From a virus (taxonomy: Duplodnaviria; Caudoviricetes): DNA of 64,000 bases. The stretch's first letter is position 1, and every line of letters starts with the position of its first letter. The DNA lies in the IMG/VR virus record IMGVR_UViG_3300025016_000004. One strand, written 5' to 3'. Shown here piece after piece: positions 3,996 to 34,930 of this stretch. The notes under the pieces were generated by a model. It searched no databases, was not told the origin of the DNA, and worked only from the letters and a program-made list of their open reading frames with translations. A program made the translations under genes and the position numbers.

Positions 3996-5216
3996 ATGAG
4001 TGATATGACATACGCATATAAAGTTATGGCTTCATTATTATTAGAAGCTGAACTAAAGGAAGTTTTACCAAATATACAACAAGAAAGTGTAATTAGATTG
4101 GTTTTAAAAGATAAATCTGAAAAAACATTTTTTGTTGAGTCAAATTTAGCTGGTAGAGTTATTATGGTTGATAAAAGTGATGGTAAAGAATACACTTTTA
4201 CCAAAGATGCGATTAGTGATGGTACTTTAACAATTTATAAATATGAAAAAAATTCACCAAGTGGTGAAGGTGCTAAAATCGTATTGAAAGTTGAAGAGTT
4301 TAGTACTGCTAAAAAAGGTGGCGAAATAAAACAAGTAGATATCGTTAAACCTATTGAAGAGAATCGTTTAGAGGAAAGAATGAATGAAATGAATGACATT
4401 ATAAAAACGGCTAAAAAAGGTTCTATAATCAACATTGCTTCAGAAGAAAAAATTGCTGAAAATGATGGTATAACAAATAATATTTTTTTAAGAGTTAATG
4501 AAATTACCCCTAAAAAATTAAGTTGTACGTTAGAAGATATCAATTCTGATGGTGAAAGTACTAAAATTAAAACTTTATTAAATACATTTAAAAATAGAAA
4601 TATATATATCAGCATTAATAGTTTAGTAAAAATTAAAAATAACGATTTAGTGTTAAATCTTTATAGGTCAGATAGAATTGTACAAATTACTGGGTTATTA
4701 AATATTGAAGTAGGTGGCGGTGGGGTTGATAACGGTGATAGTGATTACACACCAATGAGTAAACAAGAATTAATTGATAAAATCAAAAGTAGCCCACATA
4801 GTAAAGAATATTTAGAAGCTATGGATAAAACACCTGATTTTTGGGATACATTAATGAATGCATCACCAAAAGGTGTTAATCAATTAAACCAAATATTAGA
4901 TAAAGAGGTAACTAAAAATTCTTATTTAACCGTAGGAAGGCAAATTCAATTCGAAATAATTTCTGGGTCAGTTATAGTTGACAATAACATTAAATTATTG
5001 AATACTGATAAATTTAGAAGTCATAAATACCCTGGTAAAATAGAAAAAGGTAATATTATAATAAGTGGGCGTAGAAGAAGTACTAATGGACATTGGGAGT
5101 TAAAAATTTTAAAAGATTTAGGTGATGGTAATTTTAAAGTTAGGGTAAGTCATTGTGATATGGACCTTAATTGTAAAATAGTAGAGGATGAAGGCGCAAT
5201 AAGAATTGTTGAATAA
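3996..5216 (+). CDS. Hypothetical protein in tail module
   Basis: 406-aa open frame directly upstream of the tape-measure gene; no motif recognised. Confidence 0.8.
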   Translation: MSDMTYAYKVMASLLLEAELKEVLPNIQQESVIRLVLKDKSEKTFFVESNLAGRVIMVDKSDGKEYTFTKDAISDGTLTIYKYEKNSPSGEGAKIVLKVEEFSTAKKGGEIKQVDIVKPIEENRLEERMNEMNDIIKTAKKGSIINIASEEKIAENDGITNNIFLRVNEITPKKLSCTLEDINSDGESTKIKTLLNTFKNRNIYISINSLVKIKNNDLVLNLYRSDRIVQITGLLNIEVGGGGVDNGDSDYTPMSKQELIDKIKSSPHSKEYLEAMDKTPDFWDTLMNASPKGVNQLNQILDKEVTKNSYLTVGRQIQFEIISGSVIVDNNIKLLNTDKFRSHKYPGKIEKGNIIISGRRRSTNGHWELKILKDLGDGNFKVRVSHCDMDLNCKIVEDEGAIRIVE

Positions 5217-5224
5217 TATAAATA

Positions 5225-21590: not shown

Positions 21591-22664
21591 ATGGCTAATA
21601 AGCCGAGAAAATTTAATACTCTTAGTAGTAATACTAAGAATATTTTACTTGTTGATGGAAACGCCCTATTTAAGTTGGGATTTTTTGGGGCGAAAGATAT
21701 GTTTACTAGGGATGGTAAACACATAGGTGGACTCTATGCGTTTATTACCATCCTTAGAAAACTTCTTGAAGAAAAACTGTATCATAGGGTCTTTGTATTT
21801 TGGGATGGTAAATTTAGTGGTAAGATGAGATGGCAATTATACTCAGATTACAAAGTAGACCGAAATAAAGATTACATCAATGGTACGCACCCAGTTGACA
21901 TACAAGAGGTAACTGAAAAATTTTTAATAAGACAATATCTAGAAGAATTATGTATTAGACAAATGATTGATAATACTAATGCTGGTGTTGAAGCTGATGA
22001 TTTCATAGCTTATTATTGTAAAATTAAAAGTGCTGATGAAAAAATTACTATTTGTACAACGGATAGAGATTTGTGTCAATTAATTAATGAAGATGTTAGG
22101 ATATATTTGTGTGATAAGAAAGCGTATATCGATACCAAAAATTATCGAGAGCATTTCAAACATCACCATAAAAATAGTAAACTGATAAAAATTATTGGTG
22201 GTGATAATAGTGATTGTATTAAGGGAATTAGCGGTGTTAAAGAAACTACATTACTAAAATACTTCCCTCAATTAGCTGAAAGAGAAATATCATTACAAGA
22301 AATAATTACTTTAGCTAAGGAATATCAAGAGGAAAGGATTAAAGAAAAGAAAAAACCAATAAAAGCATTGACAAATATTATTGAATCTAACACTGATGGT
22401 GTACAGGGTAAGGATATTTACAAAATCAATGAAGTGATTATTGATTTAAGTAATCCTTTAATTGATAAAGTAAATCAACAGTTATTGAAATATAACAAAG
22501 GGTCTATGGGTGATTTTGAAGAACGTGGAATTAAAAACGTTTACACATATATGAAACGTGATGGTGTTGCAAAACAAATTGAATCATTCAGTACCAACTA
22601 TCTTTTACCTTTTAAACAACTGATAGAAAGAGAGAAAAAAGAAGCGAATTTAATAAATAATTAA
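21591..22664 (+). CDS. 5'-3' exonuclease / flap endonuclease (T4 RNase H, Pol I N-terminal-like)
   Basis: LLVDGN, VFWDG, EADDFIA, TTDRDLCQL, GDNSDCIKGISGV motifs. Confidence 0.9.
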   Translation: MANKPRKFNTLSSNTKNILLVDGNALFKLGFFGAKDMFTRDGKHIGGLYAFITILRKLLEEKLYHRVFVFWDGKFSGKMRWQLYSDYKVDRNKDYINGTHPVDIQEVTEKFLIRQYLEELCIRQMIDNTNAGVEADDFIAYYCKIKSADEKITICTTDRDLCQLINEDVRIYLCDKKAYIDTKNYREHFKHHHKNSKLIKIIGGDNSDCIKGISGVKETTLLKYFPQLAEREISLQEIITLAKEYQEERIKEKKKPIKALTNIIESNTDGVQGKDIYKINEVIIDLSNPLIDKVNQQLLKYNKGSMGDFEERGIKNVYTYMKRDGVAKQIESFSTNYLLPFKQLIEREKKEANLINN

Positions 22665-22666
22665 TT

Positions 22667-23227
22667 ATGGAAAAAAGGACAGGCATCGTAAAACCATTTG
22701 AGTTTTCATTAAAGATTAATGATAATATCATTTGTCAAAGATTTTTTAGTATCAAAAATTATAATAGTGATAGTAGAGAGTCTTTAGAGATTAAAGAAAT
22801 GATGGATGAAATCATGGGAGTAAATCAAAATTTAACATTAGGCCTTATACCTGAATTTTTCAAGTACCAATGTATTGATAATTCATATAAACCTTACAAT
22901 TTACAAAACAACAATTTGTTTAACAAAGATGATTATTTTACATTAGAAGTGTCCAAAAATAATGTGAATAAATTGAAAAATAAAAACGGTCAGTTTGATA
23001 TTACGGATTTAAAAAAAGACGTTATAGCTTCAGGAACGTTTGATGGTAATTTATTCCACCCAAATGTGAGGTATGAGATTGATATTAGAGGTATTATCCC
23101 AGAGATTATTAATATAATCTCAAAGTATTTGAGCCTGAAGGAATATACACATCATTTTGGTAGTGTTAAATTAACTAGGCTTAATAGACTAAGTGCTTAT
23201 GATTTAGAGAGAATAAAACAAGATTAA
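22667..23227 (+). CDS. Hypothetical protein
   Basis: 186-aa ORF tightly packed between exonuclease and helicase. Confidence 0.75.
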   Translation: MEKRTGIVKPFEFSLKINDNIICQRFFSIKNYNSDSRESLEIKEMMDEIMGVNQNLTLGLIPEFFKYQCIDNSYKPYNLQNNNLFNKDDYFTLEVSKNNVNKLKNKNGQFDITDLKKDVIASGTFDGNLFHPNVRYEIDIRGIIPEIINIISKYLSLKEYTHHFGSVKLTRLNRLSAYDLERIKQD

Positions 23228-23228
23228 T

Positions 23229-25679
23229 ATGAGTGACATCAACAAGCAAGATGGTTTTGGATTTTTAGGAATTCCTTACCAAAGAAGACTTATAACCCAA
23301 TTAATCACAGACCATAAATTTGCTACAAATATAATGGGGATAGTAGACCCAAACTACTTCACAGATTTATATTTGAGAATTATAGCATCTGAAATAAAAA
23401 ATGCGTTTGAGACTGATGAAGTTATACCAGATATTGAAAGCTTAGAATTTAGGTTAAATGGTAGAAAAGATAATGAAACTACTAAACTATATATCAAAGC
23501 ATCAATAGCTGAAATTAAAGATGGTAACCTGAACGATTCAGAATATGTTCAGGATATGGCCATGAAATTTTGTAAACAACAAGAATTAAAGAAATCAGTT
23601 CATGAAATTCAAGAAATAATAGATAAAGGTGATTTAGATTCATATGATGAATGTGAAGAAATATTAAAAAGAGCGTTAGAAGTCGGAAGTGATAAAGATT
23701 CTGGAATTGATGTTTTTTTTAATATTGAGGCAGTTCTAGAGGATGATTTTAGAAAACCAATACCTACAGGTATTGCTGGTTTAGATGATAAAATGGGTGG
23801 TGGTTTATCAAAAGGTGAATTGGGTGTTATATTAGCACCGTTTGGTGTTGGTAAAGCACAACCATTACATTCTAAAATATTAACACCTAATGGTTGGACT
23901 ACTATGGGTGAGATACAAGTTGGTGATGAAGTTATAAGTAGGGATGGTAAAGCGACTAAAGTCACTGGAGTGTTTCCACAAGGCGTTAGACCAATTTATG
24001 AGGTTAGATTTAATGATAATACTAAAACTTTATGTGATGCTGAACATTTATGGTCAGTTAATACAATCAATCAACGAAATAGAAAAACTAAAAAAAATGG
24101 TGTGATGGTTAAATTAGAACCTGATAATTCATTTAAAACTTTAAAAACTATTGATATGGTTGATAAAGTTAGGGTTTGGGGTAATAAGCGTTTAAATTAT
24201 AAAATACCAAATATCTTACCCGTAAATTTTAATAAAAATGAATTAATTATTAACCCATATTTATTAGGTGTTATATTAGGTGATGGATGTATAACTGAAC
24301 ATAATCAACCCCATATTACAACTAAAGATGTTGAATTAATAGATGAAATTGAAAAATATCATAATAATATTAATATTACTGAGCAAACACGAATGTTTGA
24401 AGTTTACAAAAATGGGAAATTTGAAAATGTAGAAAGAACCTTAACAAAAATTTCTTTATTAGGTATTAAAGATGATTTAAGTAGTTTAAAATTATATGGT
24501 TGTAATTCAGAAACTAAATTTATCCCACATAACTATCTATATTCTTCAGTTGAAGATAGAGTTTCGTTATTACAAGGATTAGTAGATACTGATGGTTATA
24601 TTGGTAACAATAGAATTGAGATTTGTACCGTATCAAAAATGATGTCGGAACAAATCAAAGAATTAGTATTGTCATTAGGTGGTACTTGTAATATAGGTGT
24701 AAAAATTGGTAGTTATTTGAAAGAGGGGGTTAAAATTAGATGTAAAAAAGCATATCGAGTTTATTTTAGTTTACCAACACAAATAAAATTTAATCCATGT
24801 AGACTTGAAAGGAAGTTGAATAATTTAAGTAAAAGGTCTAAATATGCTAATAATAAATTTATTACTAGTATTGAATATTCACATGAGGAAGAAGCTCAAT
24901 GTATTATGGTTGATAATCCAGAACATTTATATATAACTGATGATTATATAGTAACACATAACACAACCATGGTCACCAAAATAGCCAACGAAGCTTTTAA
25001 TCATGGATATAATGTTCTTCAAATATTTTTTGAAGATATTCCTAAAGTGATTCAAAGAAAACATTTATCATGTTGGACTGGGATAGCTCAAAACGATTTA
25101 CCATTAAAAGCAAACAGACCCATCATTGATGAAGTCATGAAAGAAAAAAATGATGGTAAAGGGTATTTAGAATTGAAAAAATTTCCTAGTGATGGAACAA
25201 CAATTCCTATGATTAAAAATTATATTAGAAAACTAGCAGCCGCTGGTAGAAAACCTGATGTAATTTTAATTGATTACATTGATTGTGTATCATCAACCAA
25301 ACATTACGATAAGGGATATGAGGCTGAAGGGCCAATTATGAGACAATTCGAATCATTATTGAGCGAATTTGATTTGGTTGGATGGACTGCAATTCAAGGT
25401 AATCGATGTGTTTCATTAGATACTATTATTGAAGATTCTAAACGTGGTAAAATTGAAATTAGAGATGTTAAGTTAGGGGATGAAATTTTAACTCATAAGG
25501 GTTACAAAAAAGTTACCCATATATTTCCTATTGCTAAGCAACCAGTTTATAAAATAAAATTAAAATCTGGTAAAACCATTAAAGTATCTAAAAAACATAA
25601 GTTCCCAACAAAAGATGGTGAAATGTTATCAATTGAAGATGGTTTAAAAGTTGGAAACATACTTTTAGGTAAAAAATAA
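23229..25679 (+). CDS. dnaB: Replicative helicase DnaB/gp41-like, N-terminal fragment (contiguous intein plus split-intein N half)
   Basis: Walker A APFGVGK|TT interrupted by an intein; Walker B ILIDYID; ends in a 90-aa IntN after TAIQGNR. Confidence 0.9.
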   Translation: MSDINKQDGFGFLGIPYQRRLITQLITDHKFATNIMGIVDPNYFTDLYLRIIASEIKNAFETDEVIPDIESLEFRLNGRKDNETTKLYIKASIAEIKDGNLNDSEYVQDMAMKFCKQQELKKSVHEIQEIIDKGDLDSYDECEEILKRALEVGSDKDSGIDVFFNIEAVLEDDFRKPIPTGIAGLDDKMGGGLSKGELGVILAPFGVGKAQPLHSKILTPNGWTTMGEIQVGDEVISRDGKATKVTGVFPQGVRPIYEVRFNDNTKTLCDAEHLWSVNTINQRNRKTKKNGVMVKLEPDNSFKTLKTIDMVDKVRVWGNKRLNYKIPNILPVNFNKNELIINPYLLGVILGDGCITEHNQPHITTKDVELIDEIEKYHNNINITEQTRMFEVYKNGKFENVERTLTKISLLGIKDDLSSLKLYGCNSETKFIPHNYLYSSVEDRVSLLQGLVDTDGYIGNNRIEICTVSKMMSEQIKELVLSLGGTCNIGVKIGSYLKEGVKIRCKKAYRVYFSLPTQIKFNPCRLERKLNNLSKRSKYANNKFITSIEYSHEEEAQCIMVDNPEHLYITDDYIVTHNTTMVTKIANEAFNHGYNVLQIFFEDIPKVIQRKHLSCWTGIAQNDLPLKANRPIIDEVMKEKNDGKGYLELKKFPSDGTTIPMIKNYIRKLAAAGRKPDVILIDYIDCVSSTKHYDKGYEAEGPIMRQFESLLSEFDLVGWTAIQGNRCVSLDTIIEDSKRGKIEIRDVKLGDEILTHKGYKKVTHIFPIAKQPVYKIKLKSGKTIKVSKKHKFPTKDGEMLSIEDGLKVGNILLGKK
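23856..24962 (+). mobile_element. Class 3 intein (369 aa) with LAGLIDADG endonuclease in the DnaB P-loop
   Basis: Starts AQPL (Ala1); block B CDAEHLW, block F AQCIMV, block G VTHN|T give the Trp-Cys-Thr triplet; LLGVILGDG and LQGLVDTDG motifs. Confidence 0.88.
25407..25676 (+). mobile_element. Split intein N half (DnaB), 90 aa
   Basis: Block A CVSLDT, block B VSKKHKFPT, ends GLKVGNILLGKK then stop. Confidence 0.88.
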
Positions 25680-25725
25680 TAATAATCTTTTTTGTATTGC
25701 ACTTAAACTTTTACATTATCGGTGA

Positions 25726-25732
25726 TATTTAT
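25726..25732 (+). promoter_or_regulatory. TATTTAT putative late-promoter motif
   Basis: 14 nt upstream of the endonuclease ATG 25747. Confidence 0.5.
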
Positions 25733-25746
25733 ATTAAAATATTATC

Positions 25747-26889
25747 ATGATTAAAATTGACGTAGAAAATGTAATTAATAGAAAAACCATAAAACCCCTT
25801 TATCTAAAAGGGGTTTTAACTCAAAGACATAAAAATGAAATAAATAATATTTGTGATGTATATAATAGTGTTACTATAAAAAATAGAATTAAAAATATAC
25901 ACGATTTTATAAAATATGATGTTGACGGTACAATCCCTTGGGTTAAAAGGTTGGAAATTATACAGAAAGAATTGAATAATGATATTGCTAGTAAGTATGC
26001 CTTAGAAATAAGATATGGTAAGTGTAATGTAGATAAAAAGAGGTTTGAATTGGGGGTTAAGTTTTCTCATACTTTGGAAAAGTATATTGAAAAATATGGT
26101 AAAATAATCGGTAATGAAAAGTATGATGAATATTTAAGAAAATCTAAAACACCTTGGGGTTTAAAAGGTTGTGTGGATAGATATGGTGAAATAGAAGGTA
26201 AAAAAAAATGGGTGGAAAGGTTAAATAAAAAAATAAACACTCAAAATGAAAGAAAAAAAATAAAACCATATAGGAATGGTAGGACATTGAATGAATATCA
26301 AAATAAATATGGTGTAAAACTTGGTTACTTTAAGTGGAAAAAAAGAAATGAAAAGCAGAGTTATAGATTCTCAAAAAAATATTATATAAATACTTATGGT
26401 AGTGAAAAAGGTAATATTAAATGGGTTGAGTATAAAAAAAGTATGGATAAAACTTCCTTAAAAAGTTTTATCAATAGGTATGGAGAAAAAGATGGGATTA
26501 ATAAATATGAATCTTATTTAAGTAAAATTAATGATAGTGGTGTTTTTTATAGTAAAAGTTCACAAAAGTTATTTTGGTTAATTTATAATCAATTAAGTGA
26601 CGATAAGAAAAAACTTTGTCGTTTTGCAAAATTAAATGGTGAAGAATATTTCATAGTAAATAAATTTGGTTTTAACAATATTTTAGTAGATTTTAAATGT
26701 GAGAATAAAATAATCGAATTTGATGGAGATTATTGGCATTTAAATAAAAAACAAATTGAAATTGATAAATTGAGGGATGAGTTTTTAACTTCTAAGGGTT
26801 ATCAGATTTTAAGGGTTAGAGATAGTGAATTTGAGGTTAATAAAGAAAAAGTAATTAAAGAATGTATAAAATTTATAAAAAATGAATAA
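25747..26889 (+). CDS. Free-standing Vsr/DUF559-like homing endonuclease between the DnaB split-intein halves
   Basis: [KR]YGxxxG repeats plus C-terminal VDFKCENKIIEFDGDYWH...DKLRDEFL...GYQILRV. Confidence 0.8.
   Translation: MIKIDVENVINRKTIKPLYLKGVLTQRHKNEINNICDVYNSVTIKNRIKNIHDFIKYDVDGTIPWVKRLEIIQKELNNDIASKYALEIRYGKCNVDKKRFELGVKFSHTLEKYIEKYGKIIGNEKYDEYLRKSKTPWGLKGCVDRYGEIEGKKKWVERLNKKINTQNERKKIKPYRNGRTLNEYQNKYGVKLGYFKWKKRNEKQSYRFSKKYYINTYGSEKGNIKWVEYKKSMDKTSLKSFINRYGEKDGINKYESYLSKINDSGVFYSKSSQKLFWLIYNQLSDDKKKLCRFAKLNGEEYFIVNKFGFNNILVDFKCENKIIEFDGDYWHLNKKQIEIDKLRDEFLTSKGYQILRVRDSEFEVNKEKVIKECIKFIKNE
25790..25818. promoter_or_regulatory. Perfect 12-bp hairpin inside the 5' end of the endonuclease ORF
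   Basis: TAAAACCCCTTT-ATCTA-AAAGGGGTTTTA. Confidence 0.5.
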
Positions 26890-27025
26890 AAATGAAATTA
26901 TGAATCTAGAGGGGTTTACTTTAGATGAAATAGAGAGTATTGACTTAATAGGTGAAGAAGATACCATAGATATAACTGTGGATGATACCCATATGTTTTT
27001 CGCTAATGATATATATACACATAAT
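26882..27025 (+). mobile_element. Split intein C half (DnaB), 48 aa
   Basis: Block F EDTIDITV, block G FFANDIYTHN, +1 Ser. Confidence 0.88.
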
Positions 27026-27397
27026 TCATCGATTAATGCTGAAAATGTTGATTCAAGTATGATTGGTGGGTCAATCAAAAAAGGTCAAATTGGGCATTTT
27101 ATTGTTTCAATAGCTAAAGATTTAGACCAAAAAGAGGGTGGTAGAGCTAATATGGCGATATTAAAATCTAGGTTTGGTGTAGATGGAATTATTTTTACTG
27201 ATGTAGTATTTGATAACTCCAAAATACAAATAACTATTGATGAAGGTAAAGTATTAAAAGCTTCAGAAATGGATGACTATAAGAATGAACAAGTTAAAGG
27301 AAGAATGAAAGATTTGTTCGAACAATATGAAAAAACTAAAGAAGTTTTAATCACTTCTGAAGTTGATAAAAAAGAAAAAACAGAGGATGTTAACTAA
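26882..27397 (+). CDS. dnaB: DnaB C-terminal fragment with split-intein C half
   Basis: 48-aa IntC ending IYTHN|S, then helicase SSINAE...GGSIKKGQIG...ILKSRFG. Confidence 0.9.
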   Translation: MNKNEIMNLEGFTLDEIESIDLIGEEDTIDITVDDTHMFFANDIYTHNSSINAENVDSSMIGGSIKKGQIGHFIVSIAKDLDQKEGGRANMAILKSRFGVDGIIFTDVVFDNSKIQITIDEGKVLKASEMDDYKNEQVKGRMKDLFEQYEKTKEVLITSEVDKKEKTEDVN

Positions 27398-30300
27398 AAA
27401 AGAAAAAAGAGTTAAATATTTTAGCGGTGATGATTTAGCCGCAACGGTTTGGAATGATAAATACAAACTAGGGGATGAAGGTTCGGAAATTGAAGAATCT
27501 ACGCCAGCTGATATGCACTTAAGAATGGCAAAAGAATTTGCTAGAGTTGATGGTAAATATCAAGTAAAAGAATTAAAAAAATTATTGGATAATCCAGAAA
27601 TTAAACTTAGTGATTATGGATTTAATCGTAAAGATTTAACAGTTAAAGAAATATACGCTTTATTGGAGAATTTTGGTAAAATAGTTCCACAAGGTTCTGT
27701 TATGTCACAGTTAGGTAATGACGAACAAATTGGTTCATTATCTAATTGTTTTGTTATAGGACAACCTGAAGATTCTTATGGTGGAATTATGCTTAAAGAC
27801 CAAGAATTGGTTCAATTGATGAAACGTAGAGGTGGTGTAGGTATCGATATATCGTCATTAAGACCTAGTGAAACTCCAACATCAAATGCGGCCAAGAGTT
27901 CAACTGGTGCAGTTTCTTTTATGGAAAGATTTAGTAACTCAACTAGAGAAGTTGCTCAAAATGGTCGTAGAGGTGCACTTATGCTTTCAATTGATGTAAG
28001 ACATCCAGATGTAGCTGATTTCGTTAAGATTAAGAATGATAGAACCAAAGTTACTGGTGCTAACATATCAGTTTCATTAAGAGATGATTTCATGAAAGCG
28101 GTTAAAGCTGATGGGGATTATATTTTAAGATATCCAATTAATGAAGAAATACACCCTGAATGGGATGGATTGAATGAATATGAATATAATAAATTATATA
28201 CGCTAGAAGATGCTAATAACGTTAAAACTTGGGTTAAAAAAATTAAAGCTAAAGAATTATATGACCTTATAATTGAGAATGCTTGGGACAACGCTGAACC
28301 TGGTCAGATTTTCATTGATAGACACTGGGATTATAGCCCTGATGGTGTTTATCCAGAATATAGAGGTATAACTACAAACCCTTCATTGCGTCATGATACA
28401 TTAATACAAACTGATTTAGGGTTATACCCTATAAAGGAATTAGCTGAAAGTGATGGGTTAACAATCGTTAAAAATATTAAAAATGAATGGCAAGTTGGTA
28501 AAGTGTTTTTATCTGGTAAAGGTAAAGAATTGTATAAAATTACTTTTACTAATGGATATGAAGTATATTGCACTGCTGAGCATAAATGGCCGATATTGAA
28601 TTCACAGAAAAATATTTTTAATAAAGTGAATGGTTCGGTTTTGAAAAAAAGGACTGATGAGTTAATGTTTGGACACCCAAAACTTGGTGGTGATAGAACA
28701 CATTTAGAGTTTAACCCTAATTATGAGGGTAATGTGAGTTGTAAATTAACAAAAAATGATGGATTTTTAAGTGGTTATTGGTTAGGTGATGGACACACTT
28801 CGATAACAACTGAGGGAGTTAAACAATACGGATTTATAGTATCTGATGATGAATTATTAGATTGTGGCGATAAATTACTTAATATAATCGGTGAAAATAA
28901 AATAAAAAACACTAACAATAATTTTAATAGAGACCATGAAAGTGAAGCATACTCACTATATATTAGCGAGATTGGATTCAGAGAGTATTGTGATAGATTA
29001 AAATTAGGGTATGATAAAATTAATGGGATACCCGAAACAGTTTTCAAAAGTGGTAATAAATTTATAAAAGGGTTTATAGATGGATTGTTTTCTGCTGATG
29101 GCTCTGTGTGGGCTAATGAAGATTTAGTACATAGTAGAGTTACATTAACAAGTAGTAGATTTAACATAGTAAAAGACGTTCAAAAATTATTAAATTTATT
29201 TGGAATTTCTAGTAATATACAAGAGCGTAAAGATAAGTTAAATGATAAAACGTTTACTGGGTATAATTTAGTTATTAGTGGGGTACACAGTAGGAAATTT
29301 GCAACGTGTTTTACTTTAACTTCTAAAGATAAACAAGATAAATTAGATACTATATTAAATTATGAAAACACATATAAAGATAATAGAGAGTATTTAATTA
29401 TTAAAAATGTTGAACCAACTGGTATTTTTGAGGATGTGTATGATATAACAGTATTTGATGATACACACACTTTTAAAGGAGAGTTTGGTACGACTGGTAA
29501 TTGTGGTGAAATATTTATGCAACCATATGATGCTTGTAGATTAATGGCATTGAATTTTTATTCATTTGTAGATAACCCATTTACTAAAAACGCTAGAGTC
29601 AATTATCAAGCTGTATATGAAGCGGCCTACGAGCAACAAAGATTAGCTGATGATTTAGTTGATTTAGAATTAGAAAAAATTGATAGAATTATCGCTAAGG
29701 TTAAAAATGACCCTGAAAGCGAAATGACAAAAGCTGTTGAATTACAACTTTGGGAAAATATCCGTAAAGTTGCAGCTTCTGGTAGAAGAACTGGATGTGG
29801 TTTTACTGGGTTAGGTGATATGATTGCGGCCACTGGTGTTGATTATGATTCTGAAGAAGGGTTAGATATCATTGATAAGGTTATGAGGGCTAAAATGAGC
29901 GGTGAGTTAGACTGTACTATCGATTTAGCAGCTCTTAGAGGTCATTTCGATGGATATAACAACGAATTAGAGTATTCTGATGGTGTAGGCACCAATGAGT
30001 TCTTTAAGATGCTTAAAACTGAGTTTAAAGAGCAATATGATAGAATGATTATTTATGGAAGAAGAAACGTATCATTCTCAACGGTTGCACCTACAGGTTG
30101 CTTAGTTAAAGAAACTAAACTAAAAACAAATCGAGGTATCATTGAATTGAAAGATTTATTTTTAATTAATGGTATTGATATAGATAAATTAAAAAATGAA
30201 AAAAATATTTGGTTTGATATTGAAGAAGAAATAATGGTTTATGATATTAATGGTGGTGAACATAAAATAAATAAATTATATTGGAATGGTTATAGTAAAA

Positions 30301-30443
30301 CTAAAAAAATTAAATTGGGTAATAATGAAAGTGTTGAATCTAGTACCGAACATAAGTGGTTGGTTAGGGTTTCTGAAACTGAGGCTAAATGGGTTAGAGC
30401 TGACGAATTGAAAATTTCTGATAAAATTATTAAAATAAATTAA
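27363..30443 (+). CDS. nrdJ: Class II (B12-dependent) ribonucleotide reductase, N-terminal fragment (contiguous intein plus split-intein N half)
   Basis: SLSNCFV, RRGGVG, QNGRRGALM, EPG, TNP|CGE, RRTGCG, TVAPTG motifs. Alternative start at 27387. Confidence 0.9.
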   Translation: MIKKKKQRMLTKKEKRVKYFSGDDLAATVWNDKYKLGDEGSEIEESTPADMHLRMAKEFARVDGKYQVKELKKLLDNPEIKLSDYGFNRKDLTVKEIYALLENFGKIVPQGSVMSQLGNDEQIGSLSNCFVIGQPEDSYGGIMLKDQELVQLMKRRGGVGIDISSLRPSETPTSNAAKSSTGAVSFMERFSNSTREVAQNGRRGALMLSIDVRHPDVADFVKIKNDRTKVTGANISVSLRDDFMKAVKADGDYILRYPINEEIHPEWDGLNEYEYNKLYTLEDANNVKTWVKKIKAKELYDLIIENAWDNAEPGQIFIDRHWDYSPDGVYPEYRGITTNPSLRHDTLIQTDLGLYPIKELAESDGLTIVKNIKNEWQVGKVFLSGKGKELYKITFTNGYEVYCTAEHKWPILNSQKNIFNKVNGSVLKKRTDELMFGHPKLGGDRTHLEFNPNYEGNVSCKLTKNDGFLSGYWLGDGHTSITTEGVKQYGFIVSDDELLDCGDKLLNIIGENKIKNTNNNFNRDHESEAYSLYISEIGFREYCDRLKLGYDKINGIPETVFKSGNKFIKGFIDGLFSADGSVWANEDLVHSRVTLTSSRFNIVKDVQKLLNLFGISSNIQERKDKLNDKTFTGYNLVISGVHSRKFATCFTLTSKDKQDKLDTILNYENTYKDNREYLIIKNVEPTGIFEDVYDITVFDDTHTFKGEFGTTGNCGEIFMQPYDACRLMALNFYSFVDNPFTKNARVNYQAVYEAAYEQQRLADDLVDLELEKIDRIIAKVKNDPESEMTKAVELQLWENIRKVAASGRRTGCGFTGLGDMIAATGVDYDSEEGLDIIDKVMRAKMSGELDCTIDLAALRGHFDGYNNELEYSDGVGTNEFFKMLKTEFKEQYDRMIIYGRRNVSFSTVAPTGCLVKETKLKTNRGIIELKDLFLINGIDIDKLKNEKNIWFDIEEEIMVYDINGGEHKINKLYWNGYSKTKKIKLGNNESVESSTEHKWLVRVSETEAKWVRADELKISDKIIKIN
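28383..29501 (+). mobile_element. Intein (373 aa) with LAGLIDADG endonuclease at the NrdJ catalytic Cys
   Basis: TNP|SLRHDT...YCTAEHKW...LSGYWLGDG...IDGLFSADG...DVYDITV...TTGN|CGE. Confidence 0.88.
30099..30440 (+). mobile_element. Split intein N half (NrdJ), 114 aa
   Basis: APTG|CLVKET...SSTEHKW...WVRADELKISDKI then stop. Confidence 0.88.
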
Positions 30444-30487
30444 CTAAAACGCCCTTTGTTTTATACTTATTACAAAGGGCGTTAGTT
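30442..30487 (+). promoter_or_regulatory. Hairpin over the endonuclease initiation region with a TACTTAT motif in its loop
   Basis: Perfect 12-bp stem AACGCCCTTTGT/ACAAAGGGCGTT (30448-59/30472-83), extendable to the base before ATG 30488. Confidence 0.6.
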
Positions 30488-31600
30488 ATGAAAATAAAAT
30501 ATGTAGAATATTATAATGAATTGGTTAGTAAATATGGTGAAGAAGATGGGTTAAAAAAATATAAATCATTTTTGAGGTCATCAACATTAGAAACTTATAT
30601 TATTAAATTTGGTGAAAAGCGTGGTACAGATAAATTCAATAATAAGAAAAAGTCAGGAATATCACTAGAAAAAATGATTGAGAAATATGGTGAAAAAGAC
30701 GGTACTAATAGATATAATAATTGGTTATCTAAAATTAGGCAAGATTTACCAAATTTTATTAAGAGATATGGTGAAAAAGACGGATTAAAAAAATATAATG
30801 AATTTAAAGATAATTGTATTGTTAAAACAAAAATAAAAGAAAACCCCAACTCAAAATATAATAATAGGTTACATAATACTAGATATGAATTTTTTTTAGA
30901 AGAAAATAATGGTGATATTAATAAAGCTAAAAAACAATTAATTAAAAGACAAAGAACGAGTGATTTAAAATCTTTCATTAAAAAACACGGCTTAATAGAG
31001 GGTGAAAAAAAATATAAATTAGCTAATAAAAAAAAATCTAATAATATTAAGAATTTTATTAGATTATATGGTGATGTTGAAGGTAATAGACGATATTTTA
31101 ATTATATTAAAAAACTAAAATATATTCATAGTGAAAAATATTATTTAGATAAGTATGGTGAAATAGAAGGTAAAGTTAGGTGGGTAGAATTGATTAATAA
31201 AAAAACTAATAATTTTATTAATGGTCAATCTAAAATTGGTGATGAATTTTGTAATAATTTATTTAATGAAATAAAAAAAGATGTTGATGATAAATATTAT
31301 TTTTCTGAAAATGAATATAAATTCTTTATTCATGATGAAGAATATAAAATAATTCAGCCAGATTTTTTAATTAAAGAAAGTAAAATAGTTGTTGAATTTT
31401 ATGGTGATTACTGGCATAGAAATCCAGAAATATATAATGATGATATTTCAAAAATAATTAGGGAAAAAGATGAAGAAAGGATAAAAAAAATAGAATCTTT
31501 AGGGTATATCATATATATTATATGGGAAAAGGAATATCGTTTAAATAAAATTGGAGTAATAAAAAATTTAAGTAATAAAATAATTAATAAAATAAAATAA
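30488..31600 (+). CDS. Free-standing Vsr/DUF559-like homing endonuclease between the NrdJ split-intein halves
   Basis: About 7 [KR]YGxxxG repeats plus PDFLIKESKIVVEFYGDYWH...KDEERIK...GY...IWE. Confidence 0.8.
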   Translation: MKIKYVEYYNELVSKYGEEDGLKKYKSFLRSSTLETYIIKFGEKRGTDKFNNKKKSGISLEKMIEKYGEKDGTNRYNNWLSKIRQDLPNFIKRYGEKDGLKKYNEFKDNCIVKTKIKENPNSKYNNRLHNTRYEFFLEENNGDINKAKKQLIKRQRTSDLKSFIKKHGLIEGEKKYKLANKKKSNNIKNFIRLYGDVEGNRRYFNYIKKLKYIHSEKYYLDKYGEIEGKVRWVELINKKTNNFINGQSKIGDEFCNNLFNEIKKDVDDKYYFSENEYKFFIHDEEYKIIQPDFLIKESKIVVEFYGDYWHRNPEIYNDDISKIIREKDEERIKKIESLGYIIYIIWEKEYRLNKIGVIKNLSNKIINKIK

Positions 31601-31752
31601 TGAAGGAAAATAACGAAATAATTGATATTAGTAATGTTAATTACAGTGAATGTGAAATATTAGATATTGTAGATGGATATGATTATACTATGGATTTTGA
31701 GGTGGGTGATACACATTACTATACATTAGAAAATGGTTTAGTGAGTCATAAT
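31600..31752 (+). mobile_element. Split intein C half (NrdJ), 51 aa
   Basis: DYTMDFEV...YTLENGLVSHN, +1 Ser. Confidence 0.88.
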
Positions 31753-32811
31753 AGTGTGAGTATTCTTACTCAAACTACTTCGGGGTTAGAGCCAGTATTT
31801 TCCGTATTCCCTTATTTAAGACGTAAAAAGTTAAACCCTAACGATAAAAACGCTAGAGTAGATTTTACTGATGATAATGGTGACCAATGGCAAGAGTTTT
31901 CAGTAACTCATAAACCGCTTATGGATTATATCAAAATCAATAAATTGGATGAAGCAATCACTGAATTAAATGATAAAATGAATAAAACCAAAGCTGAAGA
32001 AGAAGATTTAGTTTCTAAAGTGGTGATGTTCATAACCAATAACCCTAATCCGTATAGCAATAGTAGTGCTAATGACATTGATTGGATTGAAAGGGTTAAA
32101 ATTCAATCAATAATTCAGAAATATACAACCCATTCAATTAGTTCAACAATTAATTTACCTACTGATGTAACTAAAGAGGAAGTTTCTGAAATTTACATCA
32201 AAGCTTGGGATATGAATTTGAAGGGTGTTACTATTTATCGTGATGGTTGTAGAACTGGAGTTTTAGTTACTAAAACTGACCCTAAAGAAGATGAAATTGT
32301 TTATACAGACGCACCAAAAAGACCTGAAAAATTAGAATGTGAAATTTATCATTCTAAAGTAAAAGGTAAAATTTATACAGTAATAATTGGATTATTAAAA
32401 GGTAAAGTTTATGAAGTATTTGCTAGTGATGAAGAAATTGGTAAAGGTTATACTGAAGCTTATAATAAGAAAATTAAATCTGGTCATTATAGTCTTATAA
32501 CTAGAGGTACTGAAGAAATGATTTATGATAATATCGGTAGCAATATGACTGATGAAGAAGAGATGTTCACAAGAGGGTTATCAGCTGCATTAAGACATGG
32601 TATGCATGTTAAATTCGCTGTTGAAATGTGTAACAATGGGAAGGGTGATATCACTTCATTTACAAAGGTTATTGCTAGAACTCTTAAGAGATATATTGAG
32701 GATGGAACTTCTTCATCTAAAAAATGTCTTGATTGCGGTGCAGAAAATAGTATTATTTATGAAGAAGGTTGTCAGCGATGTAAAATCTGTGGTAGTTCTA
32801 AATGTGGTTAA
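31600..32811 (+). CDS. nrdJ: NrdJ C-terminal fragment with split-intein C half; TSCPD-like domain and C-terminal Zn ribbon
   Basis: 51-aa IntC ending LVSHN|S, then SGLEPVF, THSISSTINLP, LKGVTIYRDGCR, CLDCG...EGCQRCKICGSSKC. Confidence 0.9.
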   Translation: MKENNEIIDISNVNYSECEILDIVDGYDYTMDFEVGDTHYYTLENGLVSHNSVSILTQTTSGLEPVFSVFPYLRRKKLNPNDKNARVDFTDDNGDQWQEFSVTHKPLMDYIKINKLDEAITELNDKMNKTKAEEEDLVSKVVMFITNNPNPYSNSSANDIDWIERVKIQSIIQKYTTHSISSTINLPTDVTKEEVSEIYIKAWDMNLKGVTIYRDGCRTGVLVTKTDPKEDEIVYTDAPKRPEKLECEIYHSKVKGKIYTVIIGLLKGKVYEVFASDEEIGKGYTEAYNKKIKSGHYSLITRGTEEMIYDNIGSNMTDEEEMFTRGLSAALRHGMHVKFAVEMCNNGKGDITSFTKVIARTLKRYIEDGTSSSKKCLDCGAENSIIYEEGCQRCKICGSSKCG

Positions 32812-32847
32812 TTTTTAACAGCTTCCCTTATCATTTATGTTAAGGCC

Positions 32848-32892
32848 AAGAGGTGTAAGTCATATAGAATTAGACTTACACCTCTTTTTTTT
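32848..32892 (+). terminator. Intrinsic terminator ending the replication operon
   Basis: Perfect 14-bp stem AAGAGGTGTAAGTC/GACTTACACCTCTT plus a T run. Confidence 0.85.
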
Positions 32893-32913
32893 GTTTAAAA
32901 CTTTACTTTTAGA

Positions 32914-32920
32914 TATTTAT
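32914..32920 (+). promoter_or_regulatory. TATTTAT putative late-promoter motif
   Basis: 14 nt upstream of ATG 32935, just after the terminator. Confidence 0.55.
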
Positions 32921-32934
32921 TAGTAAATAAAGTC

Positions 32935-33318
32935 ATGGCAAATAAGAGTATTAATATTAACTTCCCCTTTAAAGATAGTCCAAAAGGGTTCTTTTTAGAT
33001 TTAAATACCGTTGATAATAAAGCAATCAAGGCTGATTTATTACATTTAATTCTAACCAATAAGGGTGAACGTTTATATTTACCTGATTTTGGAACCAATT
33101 TAAGAAAATATTTATTTAATCCTTATGATGGAATTACTGAAAGTGAGATAAAATCTGAAATTAGTGAAGCCATTAAAAAATACATTCCTAATTTGAAAGT
33201 AAATTCAATAACTTTCGAAGAAGCACCTCAAAGTCAATATGGTGCTGTAGTTAAATTAGAGTACACTATCACTGAAGATGTATTCGAAACTCGTGACATG
33301 ATTATTATTCAGTTATAA
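32935..33318 (+). CDS. Baseplate wedge subunit (T4 gp25-like)
   Basis: LILTNKGERLYLPDFGTNLRKYLF motif; 127 aa. Confidence 0.9.
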   Translation: MANKSININFPFKDSPKGFFLDLNTVDNKAIKADLLHLILTNKGERLYLPDFGTNLRKYLFNPYDGITESEIKSEISEAIKKYIPNLKVNSITFEEAPQSQYGAVVKLEYTITEDVFETRDMIIIQL

Positions 33319-34930
33319 TTTCATATTTTAAATTACCAGAATCGTAAATCCTATATAAACCTAATTTTTGTGTAATCTCATTTTCTGTTAAGTTTGAATC
33401 ATAACCCATTTTAACTAATTTATGTTTTTGATATTTAAATCTATTCTCTCTTATTTTTAAAACATCATTAAATAATGTGTAATTAGGTAACGAAGCATGT
33501 TTAAATTCAAACCCTAAATTTTTATATAAATTACCAGAACTCCACCTTCTATCAGCATAGGATATAATTGATTTGGGTTTATAAGTTTTAACAAAGTATT
33601 TAAATAACTTACTAGCACCACCAATGACTGTAGTATCTAATTTATTACAAAATCTAATTAATTCCCACTCAGAGTTACCAAATATTTTTCTTTTACCAAA
33701 AGTCATTAGACTAATTAACTCATCATCATAATATAACCCTAATTTAATTTTAGAATTAACATTACCTTGAATATGGTTATTATCTAAAAATATCTTACTT
33801 GTTTTACTATCTATTAATTTTACAATAGTGTTTCTACCATAAATTCTATTCTTACTTAATCCCAATAAATTTTTCAATCTTGATTTAACAATTTCTTTTT
33901 TATAAACCCATTCATCTTCGAATAGGTGAATTAATTGAATACCTTTAGATTCACATAATTTAGTTTTATTTAAGTGATATTTTTTATCTTTATATATTTC
34001 TGAATGCCAATACAACCCATTAATTTCAATACCTATTTTTTTAGATGGTATGTAAATATCTAATTCTTTACCACCCAATACAGACCTATCATTTTTAATA
34101 AAATTTAAATCAATTGATTTAATAAAATCAATAACTTCCATTTCAATTATTGATGTTGAATTGGTACACTTTTTACAACCATAGTTATTTATATGGTATA
34201 AGGGTGTTTCTTTTACTAATCCGTGAGTTTTACAAATAATATCAACTTCAGTGGTCAAATCAATATATTTTACTTTAGAATAATCATATTTATTACCATG
34301 AATTTTTTTAGCTTTAGTTATAAATGATTTAGTGTCAAATACTCTACCTAAACAACTTAAACAACCTTGACCTTTTGATAAATGATTATTCGGTAATATA
34401 TCAAACTCACCATGTTTAGGGCAAATAATTGTTATATTAGTTTTAGTGTCAACATATTTTACTTTAGAATAATCATATCTATCACCATGAATTTTTTTAG
34501 CTTTAGTTATAAAAATTTTGGTATCTAATTTAGCAGTTCCACCACAATATTTACACCCTTTACCTTTTATATGATTATCAGGTATTTGTTGAAATTCACC
34601 ATGTTTAGGACAAATTATTATAACTTTATTCTTATTTCCAGAGTATTTTACTTTAGAATAATTATATCTATCACCATGAATTTTTTTAGATTCATTTATA
34701 AATTCTTCATTTGTTTTTAATTGAGATAACCCAAATTCTATATTTTTACATTTTGGACAACCTTGATTTCTATTTAAATGGTGCACTGGGGTTTTATAAA
34801 ATTCACCATGTTTAGGGCAAACTATAATAACTTTATCATTATTTCTAACATACACTACTTTAGAATAATCATATCTATCACCATGAATTTTTTTAGATTC
34901 ATTTATAAATTTTTTAGTTGTTTTTTTCAT
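33305..34930 (-). CDS. Putative free-standing homing endonuclease (Zn CPxHG repeats plus Hef-like PD-(D/E)xK domain)
   Basis: The track strand label is wrong: CAT at 34928-34930 and TTA at 33305-33307 place the protein on the - strand. Four C-x-x-HG repeats; ELDIYIP...IEINGLYWH...HLFEDEW. Confidence 0.8.
   Translation of the reverse strand: MKKTTKKFINESKKIHGDRYDYSKVVYVRNNDKVIIVCPKHGEFYKTPVHHLNRNQGCPKCKNIEFGLSQLKTNEEFINESKKIHGDRYNYSKVKYSGNKNKVIIICPKHGEFQQIPDNHIKGKGCKYCGGTAKLDTKIFITKAKKIHGDRYDYSKVKYVDTKTNITIICPKHGEFDILPNNHLSKGQGCLSCLGRVFDTKSFITKAKKIHGNKYDYSKVKYIDLTTEVDIICKTHGLVKETPLYHINNYGCKKCTNSTSIIEMEVIDFIKSIDLNFIKNDRSVLGGKELDIYIPSKKIGIEINGLYWHSEIYKDKKYHLNKTKLCESKGIQLIHLFEDEWVYKKEIVKSRLKNLLGLSKNRIYGRNTIVKLIDSKTSKIFLDNNHIQGNVNSKIKLGLYYDDELISLMTFGKRKIFGNSEWELIRFCNKLDTTVIGGASKLFKYFVKTYKPKSIISYADRRWSSGNLYKNLGFEFKHASLPNYTLFNDVLKIRENRFKYQKHKLVKMGYDSNLTENEITQKLGLYRIYDSGNLKYEIITE

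Follow-up and report, generated by a model that had tools for sequence, protein, structure and literature searches.

How might an uncultured aquifer phage obtain a working replicative helicase from a gene that it encodes in two pieces? In the IMG/VR record IMGVR_UViG_3300025016_000004, of which we analyzed a stretch of 64,000 nucleotides (hereafter, the window), a DnaB-type helicase is specified by two ORFs on one strand, each bearing one half of a split intein, and a gene for a Vsr-like nuclease lies between them. Our reading, to which we assign a probability of roughly 0.88, is that a DnaB/gp41-type helicase gene has been fractured at QxNR/S (here and below, a slash marks a junction) by a split class 1 intein of the gp41-8-site family, together with a Vsr-like (EDxHD) homing-endonuclease gene, and that the products would be trans-spliced to a helicase of 480 aa. 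This reading is built on the anatomy of the locus, its exact junctions, its homology to fast trans-splicing inteins, its conservation, and its patchy distribution.

What does the locus contain?

The first ORF (23229-25679, 816 aa) comprises extein 1, a contiguous intein, extein 2, and the N-terminal half of the split intein (IntN); the second (26882-27397, 171 aa) comprises the C-terminal half (IntC, 48 aa) and extein 3 (123 aa). The features are as follows:

23229-23855, plus strand: extein 1, 209 aa, from the helicase N-terminal domain halfway into the Walker A loop, ending GVGK
23856-24962, plus strand: contiguous, putatively cis-splicing intein in the P-loop, 369 aa (AQPL...VTHN), with a LAGLIDADG endonuclease
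24963-25406, plus strand: extein 2, 148 aa, from TTMV... to ...AIQGNR
25407-25679, plus strand: IntN, 90 aa (coding 25407-25676), starting CVSLDT, with Cys1 and block B VSKKH; stop codon TAA at 25677
25680-25746, plus strand: non-coding spacer, 67 nt, with the promoter-like motif ATATTTAT at 25725-25732 and an AU-rich hairpin
25747-26889, plus strand: free-standing nuclease gene, 380 aa, with N-terminal helical repeats and a Vsr-fold domain at residues 267-380
26882-27025, plus strand: IntC, 48 aa, ending NDIYTHN; its first 8 nt, with the ATG, lie within the end of the nuclease gene and its stop
27026-27397, plus strand: extein 3 and stop codon, 123 aa, starting SSINAE

The ORF lengths and the QGNR/C and THN/SS junctions given by an initial annotation of the window were reproduced when the ORFs were recomputed. 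Its sum of 209 + 148 + 123 = 480 aa for the helicase holds once both inteins are removed, and a recount returned the same charges (IntN, 21 K/R versus 11 D/E; IntC, 13 D/E versus 1 K). That annotation also stated that the arrangement had already been described from marine metagenomes, and the layout does fit the fractured genes of Dassa et al. 2009 (PMC2677866), in which an N-terminal part with IntN is followed by a free-standing endonuclease, of the GIY-YIG or Vsr-like type, and then by IntC with the C-terminal part, all on one strand. The layout has been known since 2009, and this locus adds another case. The pattern is not a product of chance, because both intein halves match gp41-1, the nuclease passes Pfam thresholds, and the exteins abut in intein-free alleles.

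Directly upstream of the helicase gene is a 186-aa ORF without a PHROG match, preceded by an exonuclease gene. Downstream lies a second fractured gene, nrdJ, whose split pair is found 3 kb away in the same phage.

As the sequence is metagenomic and relatives co-occur in the same samples (joint 23915-24924, with other letters between), one might suspect an assembly artefact or a chimera of two phage variants. We regard this as practically negligible, since the same ORF set recurs in separately filed ENA, JGI, and Logan assemblies, the 171-aa protein has index entries in 126 assembly blocks, and the architecture is common to 14 other loci. Furthermore, single contigs of two runs, which are possibly the source samples, span 22600-33000 with 0 and 3 differences.

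Where is the helicase gene interrupted?

Uninterrupted alleles answer this to the base. In one of them (L010), with exteins 84-86% identical to those of the window, the three extein pieces occupy 4945-5571, 5572-6015, and 6016-6357 and adjoin base for base; extein 2 runs straight into extein 3 there, as it does in L009, L014, and others. Neither intein half is present in 58 of 80 related viral loci, where exteins 2 and 3 likewise adjoin. Because these alleles of related viral contigs carry the three extein pieces exactly adjoining, both junctions are proved.

The intact L010 allele is a DnaB-like helicase (PF03796, 42.2 bits against a cut-off of 27; phrog_19, E 6e-53). The interrupted 816-aa ORF by itself reaches only 19.2 bits against PF03796 (cut-off 27), and the spliced window sequence aligns with L010 from end to end. 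By sequence, then, the host gene belongs with the DnaB-like helicases, its DnaB_C domain with Walker A and B motifs being predicted to become continuous once the inteins are removed.

To which insertion site does the split intein belong?

The initial annotation likened IntN to gp41-1. The likeness is real (E 2.7e-14 and ~43% identity over 77 residues against the solved gp41-1 intein, 6qaz; for IntC, E 7e-4), but gp41-1 is not the closest relative. In a comparison with published split inteins, the junction GNR/SS corresponds to the gp41-8 site, and the halves resemble gp41-8 (~55% by eye) more than gp41-1 (~43%). The split intein is assigned to the gp41-8 insertion-site family, directly after the Arg of QxNR and before Ser. 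Both gp41-1 and gp41-8 trans-splice rapidly in vitro (PMC7090010).

The correspondence with gp41-8, whose fractured phage-like gp41 locus comes from Dassa et al. 2009 (PMC2677866), extends to the type of host enzyme, the insertion point xNR/S (LNR/SAY there, GNR/SSI here), the split position (N half ~89-90 aa, C half 45-48 aa), and a free-standing putative endonuclease between the halves; a basic N half and an acidic C half are common to gp41-8, gp41-1, and the present locus. Counted by eye against the printed gp41-8 sequence, identity is ~55% over 84 positions for IntN and ~58% over 36 for IntC, whereas a tool-made comparison with P0259, a close relative of gp41-8, gives 46% and 57%. The sub-lineages are nonetheless separate (QGNR/C...NDIYTHN/SS here versus QLNR/C...NGILTHN/SA in gp41-8). 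Unlike the gp41-8 host, the helicase here has a second, class 3-type intein; the upstream genes differ too, the gp41-8 locus having a primase-like ORF in place of the 186-aa ORF and exonuclease gene.

Membership in the gp41-1 allelic family (SGY/SSS; in P-SSM2, SGF355/A356) was considered and rejected, as an alignment with P-SSM2 gp41 puts the present site at R352, three residues upstream. The gp41-1 system (PDB 6QAZ, 6RIZ; cyanophage-like gp41) has homologous HINT halves in the same kind of locus, but its host helicase is only ~22% identical to the one described here.

Are the two halves likely to splice?

All the residues expected of a class 1 split intein are present, namely C1, VSKKH, the terminal YTHN, and S+1. 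Among 16 aligned alleles, with extein identity down to 35%, Cys1, the block B motif (S or C)-x-x-H, THMFFANDIYTHN, and the +1 Ser are invariant. YTHN/S is kept in 119 of the 120 C-half proteins listed, and at least 374 C-half proteins are found in public metagenomes at E ≤ 1e-3. Homology and conservation together suggest that IntN and IntC splice in trans.

A predicted complex of the two halves scored 0.69, against 0.00 for the best of three controls, with contact agreement between runs of at least 93% and a partner pLDDT of at least 71; of 78 solved complexes, 51 attain the mark applied, as do 2 of 108 mismatched pairs. As similar complexes have already been solved, this pass may merely reproduce structures known to the predictor, and the prediction is best read as a likeness to those complexes, in which the halves would associate into one HINT fold.

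Association is also all that such a prediction indicates, and the halves could in principle be a non-covalent dimerization module that does not splice, in the manner of the Aeh1 NrdA genes-in-pieces; fragmented phage enzymes can function unligated (PMC3045599). We think this improbable: Cys1, the block B His, the terminal His-Asn, and the +1 Ser are the residues of splicing chemistry and are invariant, and the closest characterized relatives splice rapidly.

In the trans-splicing reading, two polypeptides would be made from the helicase locus. The basic IntN (strand VYKIKLK) would zip with the acidic IntC (strand DEIESIDL) into one HINT domain, and splicing would join ...IQGNR to SSINAE..., giving a ligated form of ~849 aa. 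The upstream class 3-type intein would splice in cis and restore the Walker A loop GVGK/TT, leaving the 480-aa helicase as the final product.

That 369-aa intein has the class 3 signature, with Ala1, a block B Trp (EHLW), a block F Cys (AQCIMV), a Thr-His-Asn end, and a +1 Thr, and it matches the Pfam families LAGLIDADG_3 and Hom_end. Among solved structures, it is closest to mini-inteins of DnaB helicases (6rix, 6riy, and 6bs8; E 2e-16). With class 3 inteins of the Msm DnaBi1 type (PDB 6BS8, 6RIX) it shares the Walker A site, a residue 1 other than Cys, the block F Cys, and the block B Trp; those solved relatives are mini-inteins, whereas the present intein has a LAGLIDADG domain. It occurs in the related loci L003-5, L008, L024, L031/32, L052, and L061 and is missing from most of the others.

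What is the gene between the halves?

A 380-aa Vsr-like nuclease had been named in the initial annotation, and the protein passes Pfam gathering scores (PF18741, 40.3 bits against a cut-off of 38.2; PF04480, 37.4 against 20.6). Its structure model (pLDDT 92.7) superposes in VIA-align on 1cw0 (Z 11.1, rmsd 1.8 Å, 97 aligned) and on 3r3p (Z 11.1, rmsd 2.5 Å, 92 aligned). The latter is also matched by sequence (E 1e-3) and is the top Foldseek match, at E 0.03 only. Across 84 nuclease homologues, D315, E324, H331, and D340 never vary, and at least 90% retain D326. The modeled domain thus has a Vsr-type fold with the composite Glu/Asp/His/Asp motif of EDxHD endonucleases; its activity and target are presumptive.

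The prototype EDxHD (Vsr-like) homing endonuclease is I-Bth0305I (PMC3239194; PDB 3R3P), with which the protein shares the C-terminal Vsr-fold domain, conserved acidic and His catalytic residues, and the order of a putatively DNA-binding N-terminus followed by the nuclease. I-Bth0305I sits inside a group I intron and has two NUMOD motifs, whereas the gene here is free-standing between intein halves and the N-terminal region is modeled as helical hairpin repeats with ~six YGxxxG units. Over residues 1-290, Pfam at E ≤ 5 returned no family beyond one chance-level match. The nuclease would be a selfish passenger occupying the place of an intein's own endonuclease, and it probably cuts intein-free alleles so that the whole cassette is copied in during co-infection.

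How might the nuclease and IntC be expressed?

The spacer before the nuclease gene is longer (67 nt) than the 27-51 nt of published fractured genes, in which the nuclease 5' UTR forms a hairpin, often with a late-promoter-like element (PMC2677866). Here, the 3' arm of the hairpin extends beyond 25746, with the ATG of the nuclease gene (25747-25749) among its paired bases. The fold of 25700-25752 (53 nt; -8.5 kcal/mol, z -3.5) is AU-rich and weak, with a z of only -1.3 on an 84-nt piece. In 12 related loci, hairpins likewise cover the ATG and the TATTTAT motif. Of 45 ORF starts, 11 have the promoter-like motif at a distance of 12-16 nt upstream, versus 1.1 expected. The nuclease gene carries its own promoter-like motif and start-codon hairpin, which may regulate it.

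The IntC start often overlaps the nuclease end by 6-69 bp in fractured genes (PMC2677866); the overlap here is 8 nt (ATGAATAA) and is identical in six related loci. The overlap hints at translational coupling between IntC and the nuclease, itself probably repressed, which would be awkward for an essential early gene.

What do related alleles say?

Across alleles, the insertion site is found empty, with a contiguous mini-intein, split with the nuclease, split with a decayed nuclease, and split without one. The L001 nuclease has four in-frame stops and both L001 intein halves are intact. In L003-5, L008, and L012, which lack a nuclease gene, a stop is followed by a new ATG; in L008 and L012 that ATG is in another frame. 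On the extein tree, at least six changes are needed to account for the split state, and the site is empty in the nearest relatives of the window. No co-conversion tract was seen around the insertion site.

These alleles bear on whether the nuclease ORF is instead removed as a group I or II intron, giving one continuous helicase-intein message, an outcome that the initial annotation named as a refutation. Vsr-like endonucleases do occur within group I introns, as I-Bth0305I does in a phage recA. Yet when 22500-33000 was scanned against Rfam at E ≤ 1, no group I or II intron was returned, only a single snoRNA-like chance match at 32405-32461, outside the locus, and the IntN stop and the IntC ATG are conserved in all alleles. 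In L008 and L012, moreover, nothing is left to splice at the RNA level, because the halves lie a few bases apart in different frames. The one RNA library containing the phage gave only five short contigs, none of them across the junctions or with an intron joint, at a coverage too thin to count. We consider RNA-level removal extremely unlikely.

Only slightly more credit is due to the idea that insertion of the nuclease destroyed the helicase, leaving decaying remnants while another helicase is active. The ORFs are interrupted twice, and a second intact helicase is possible elsewhere, because 64 kb of a ~315-kb genome were inspected. Against this, both ORFs are open with every helicase and intein motif intact, and the arrangement is maintained even in alleles whose exteins are as little as 35% identical. 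The intein halves are no less conserved than the exteins (identity to L001, 82% for IntN versus 69-74% for the exteins), and it is the nuclease that is lost or decayed while the halves remain.

What does the locus mean for fractured genes?

Nothing here alters existing knowledge in kind. The group of gp41-1, gp41-8, NrdJ-1, and IMPDH-1 is among the fastest protein-ligation tools, and many ready-made variants would be available from a new natural lineage that occupies the gp41-8 site and is already deeply sampled. Tentatively, and with more doubt than confidence, we suggest that the QGNR/C...YTHN/SS lineage, with its hundreds of natural alleles, comprises uncharacterized split inteins that are fast and show no cross-reactivity toward gp41-8, gp41-1, or the NrdJ pair, and that the nuclease recognizes DNA by ~six YGxxxG helical hairpins, forming a new kind of modular array, rather than by NUMOD motifs. 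The nearby nrdJ pair must coexist with the helicase split intein in one cell.

As all the stages predicted by the 2009 gene-breaking model are present at one insertion site, that model can be tested on real alleles. For the phage itself, maturation of an essential helicase appears to depend on two splicing reactions that differ in mechanism.

Organization of the helicase locus

The part lengths and junctions given in the initial annotation were reproduced exactly, using an ORF map and a script that cuts the proteins at motifs.

Features of the split helicase locus
23229-25679, +, helicase N-part ORF, 816 aa
within 23229-25679, +, extein 1 (first helicase piece), 209 aa, last residues GVGK
23856-24962, +, contiguous P-loop intein, 369 aa, AQPL...IVTHN
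within 23229-25679, +, extein 2, 148 aa, TTMV...AIQGNR
25407-25676, +, IntN (N-terminal half of the split intein), 90 aa, first residues CVSLDT, then stop TAA
25747-26889, +, free-standing nuclease ORF, 380 aa, beginning 67 non-coding bases 3' of the IntN stop
26882-27397, +, helicase C-part ORF, 171 aa: IntC (C-terminal half, 48 aa, ending NDIYTHN), then SSINAE and 117 further helicase residues

The overlap between the nuclease stop and the IntC ATG is 8 nt. The three exteins add up to the proposed 480-aa helicase (209+148+123), and the charge split stands as well, with 21 K/R versus 11 D/E in IntN and 13 D/E versus 1 K in IntC. As a region of phage replication and structural genes, the window also encodes an SSB, a UvsX-like recombinase, an exonuclease, and baseplate and tape-measure proteins.

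That the arrangement is an assembly artefact has a negligible probability, given that an identical ORF set occurs in separately filed ENA, JGI, and Logan assemblies, that the 171-aa C-part protein turns up in 126 indexed blocks of assemblies, and that single contigs of two runs span 22600-33000 with 0 and 3 differences (though these runs, from aquifer and spring samples, may be the source of the window itself and belong to one campaign). The 171-aa protein is also encoded on a contig of 314,960 bp.

The upstream P-loop intein carries a class-3 signature (Ala1, block B Trp, block F Cys, and Thr preceding the terminal His-Asn), and its nearest solved relatives are the DnaB mini-inteins 6rix and 6bs8 (E 2e-16). 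With this intein and the split intein on one polypeptide, maturation would need both class-3 cis-splicing and class-1 trans-splicing. A co-occurring contig in DNA runs X1 and X23 (29.5 kb with a depth of 82 in X1) matches the P-loop intein at its two ends only (window 23872-24965), with 993 other letters in between; judged by sequence, it is from a related phage in the same samples that has a different intein body at the same P-loop site.

Intein-free relatives

Scanning viral contigs with the 171-aa protein yielded 80 related loci, on each of which the seven parts were placed by tblastn. No intein of any sort is present in 58 of them, and two others (L052 and L061) have only the P-loop intein, the split-intein site being empty. 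In the closest allele, L010, whose exteins are 84-86% identical to those of the window, the extein pieces lie head to tail and in frame at 4945-5571, 5572-6015, and 6016-6357. The uninterrupted L010 protein scores 42.2 bits against PF03796 (cut-off 27) and E 6e-53 against phrog_19, and is by these matches a DnaB-like replicative helicase. The spliced window sequence aligns with it end to end; since the exteins abut in intein-free alleles, cutting out both predicted inteins leaves a normal helicase with its Walker A loop (GVGK|TT) made whole.

No cultured relative can be named, because a megablast search of 50,697 phage records with the locus gave no match and the intact helicase allele is at best 28% identical to helicases of isolates. 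At one empty site (L009, 2257-2265) the junction reads GNR|GS, with Gly replacing Ser at +1. An intein inserted there would be without a nucleophile, and this may be a resistant target variant.

Relationship to gp41-8 and gp41-1

The initial annotation likened IntN to gp41-1. The homology is real: IntN matches the gp41-1 crystal-structure sequence at E 2.7e-14 over 77 residues (~43% identity), and IntC its final 37 residues (E 7e-4). The insertion site and the closer identity, however, are those of gp41-8. Position 356 of P-SSM2 gp41 is the insertion point of gp41-1 to gp41-7, with gp41-8 lying elsewhere (Dassa et al. 2009, PMC2677866), and the native junctions are SGY|SSS for gp41-1 and LNR|SAY for gp41-8 (PMC7090010 supplement). 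We found gp41 in the P-SSM2 record and aligned it with the spliced window helicase. R352 aligns with the residue just before the window junction, whereas the gp41-1 site, SGF355|A356, is three residues downstream; together with GNR|SS against LNR|SAY, this identifies the window insertion point as that of gp41-8, a characterized intein. By-eye counts on the printed supplement sequence give ~55% identity to gp41-8 over 84 IntN positions and ~58% over 36 IntC positions. A tool comparison with P0259, the helicase protein of locus L085 and a close gp41-8 relative, gives 46% for IntN and 57% for IntC.

This kind of fractured-gene locus is an established one, as the annotation stated; it has been known since 2009 (PMC2677866), and the site is already represented by gp41-8; the allele itself is new.

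Conservation and predicted function of the intein halves

The C-terminal THMFFANDIYTHN and the +1 Ser, like Cys1 and the block B Ser/Cys-x-x-His, are (near-)invariant in 16 distinct alleles with extein identity as low as 35%. The C-half matches 374 proteins at E<=1e-3; 120 listed ones of 150-220 aa were inspected for the motif, and YTHN|S is present in 119. Against L001, the closest cassette-bearing allele, IntN is 82% identical and the exteins 69-74%. Such conservation of intein halves and motifs speaks against a decaying pseudogene, a reading we consider very unlikely. Fragments held together non-covalently, without ligation, are possible in principle, but this would leave the invariance of residues needed only for the chemistry unexplained.

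The predicted IntN/IntC complex scored 0.69, versus 0.00 for the best of three controls. Among solved complexes 51 of 78 reach this mark, and among mismatched pairs 2 of 108 do. Contact agreement between runs was >=93% and partner pLDDT >=71, the contacts of least predicted error joining IntN around YKIKLK with IntC around DEIESIDL. Structures of the gp41-1 and DnaE inteins already exist, so this is a likeness rather than independent proof. In vitro, gp41-1 and gp41-8 reach >75% of maximum splicing within an hour (PMC7090010). The finding of a split intein is correct; trans-splicing of this allele is only predicted.

In five alleles (L003-L005, L008, and L012) IntN ends in a stop and IntC begins at a new ATG, with no gene in between, like the nuclease-free gp41-7 of the 2009 paper (PMC2677866). 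From IntN stop to IntC start there are 63 nt in L003-L005, while the two overlap by 1-4 nt in L008 and L012, where IntN and IntC are in different frames. These nuclease-free, out-of-frame alleles leave RNA splicing nothing to join, and no intron was found when 22500-33000 was scanned with Rfam at E<=1, so that excision of the nuclease ORF as an intron, which the annotation had named as a refutation, is extremely improbable. In the cold-spring RNA library X24, 7% of sampled words were present; within 22600-33000 the library yielded five short contigs, all of them in the nuclease genes and nrdJ, with no joints and none over the helicase or the junctions, coverage too thin to show transcription or exclude RNA processing.

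The free-standing nuclease

The middle ORF scores above the Pfam gathering thresholds for PF18741 (REase_MTES_1575) and PF04480 (DUF559), and its best solved sequence relative is the I-Bth0305I catalytic domain (3r3p, E 1e-3). A fold modeled from an alignment of 84 homologues has a mean pLDDT of 92.7. Foldseek of this model against the PDB returned nothing at E<=0.001, 3r3p being top-ranked at E 0.03. By VIA-align, model residues 267-380 superimpose both on 1cw0, the Vsr of E. coli (Z 11.1, rmsd 1.8 A, 97 aligned), and on 3r3p (Z 11.1, rmsd 2.5 A, 92 aligned), which settles the Vsr fold of the modeled C-terminal domain. D315, E324, H331, and D340 are invariant among the 84 sequences and D326 is present in >=90%; these correspond to the composite EDxHD motif defined for the I-Bth0305I-type family (PMC3239194).

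The N-terminal 265 residues (25747-26540) are all-helical in the model, forming ~six helix-hairpin units with invariant YGxxxG glycines and a spacing of ~28 aa. They differ from the NUMOD motifs of I-Bth0305I, and no Pfam family matches the region; DUF7487, a sub-threshold Atlas feature lead (score 0.86), was unconfirmed by Pfam. From the model, the repeats may be a modular DNA-binding array.

Neighboring elements and putative control signals

Elements downstream of the helicase locus
27363-32811, second fractured gene, nrdJ, directly downstream
about 28383-29501, contiguous LAGLIDADG intein of nrdJ
30099-30440, IntN of nrdJ, 114 aa, TVAPTG|C
30488-31600, Vsr-like nuclease of nrdJ, 370 aa, paralogous to and 26% identical with that of the helicase locus
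31600-31752, IntC of nrdJ, 51 aa, VSHN|S
33305-34930, minus, third nuclease-like ORF, 541 aa, free-standing, between nrdJ and the baseplate genes

The 541-aa ORF combines four repeats of the DUF723/treble-clef zinc-ribbon kind with a Vsr/MTES_1575-like domain (weak Pfam matches) and a Mom-like C-terminal region.

In the helicase spacer, the nuclease ATG folds into the 3' arm of an AU-rich hairpin (-8.5 kcal/mol, z -3.5 for 25700-25752, but z -1.3 over a longer stretch of 84 nt). Hairpins also cover the ATG in L002, L006, L007, L011, L013, and L024, and that at the nrdJ nuclease start is much stronger (-23.2 kcal/mol, z -7.8).

TATTTAT(A) lies 10-25 nt 5' of the nuclease ATG in 12 loci. Within the window, ATATTTAT is found 12-16 nt 5' of the ATG at 11 of 45 plus-strand ORF starts, where random placement would give 1.1; these include 1450, 3996, 8102, 25747 (the helicase-locus nuclease, with a perfect copy), 32935, 35035, 36914, 51331, and 53088, baseplate genes among them. 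Bare TATTTAT is not enriched across the whole window (86 found versus 81.5 expected), only its placement before ORF starts being non-random. ATATTTAT is probably a late-promoter-like element of this phage. Hairpin, promoter-like motif, and gene overlap all have parallels in the fractured genes of 2009 (PMC2677866), and the functions of the hairpin, the motif, and the 8-nt overlap are inferred.

Mobility of the insertion site

A maximum-likelihood tree built from 54 distinct extein sequences requires 7 changes of the split-plus-nuclease state (>=6 on well-supported branches), and the window's nearest neighbors, L010 and L009, have empty sites. This pattern would fit repeated invasion or repeated loss, in either direction. 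Sliding nucleotide identity of the window exteins against L001 (with cassette) and L010 and L009 (empty) revealed no co-conversion tract near the junction. The L001 nuclease (4860-5985) has four in-frame stops clustered at residues 127-152, with IntN and IntC intact, and resembles a homing endonuclease in decay.

A search seeded with IntN found P0259 (L085 882-2612), in which IntN-like and IntC-like parts are fused in one frame, QLNR|C...GILTHN|SAV, without a stop or nuclease. Going by its sequence, this is a gp41-8-type mini-intein in contiguous form and looks like a cis-splicing counterpart of the split form. The same DnaB-like helicase has a further mini-intein in its P-loop. Taken with P0259, the related alleles present one insertion site in five states: empty, occupied by a contiguous intein, and split with a nuclease, with a decayed nuclease, or with none. 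Together they make up the stages of the gene-breaking model that the 2009 paper discusses (PMC2677866).
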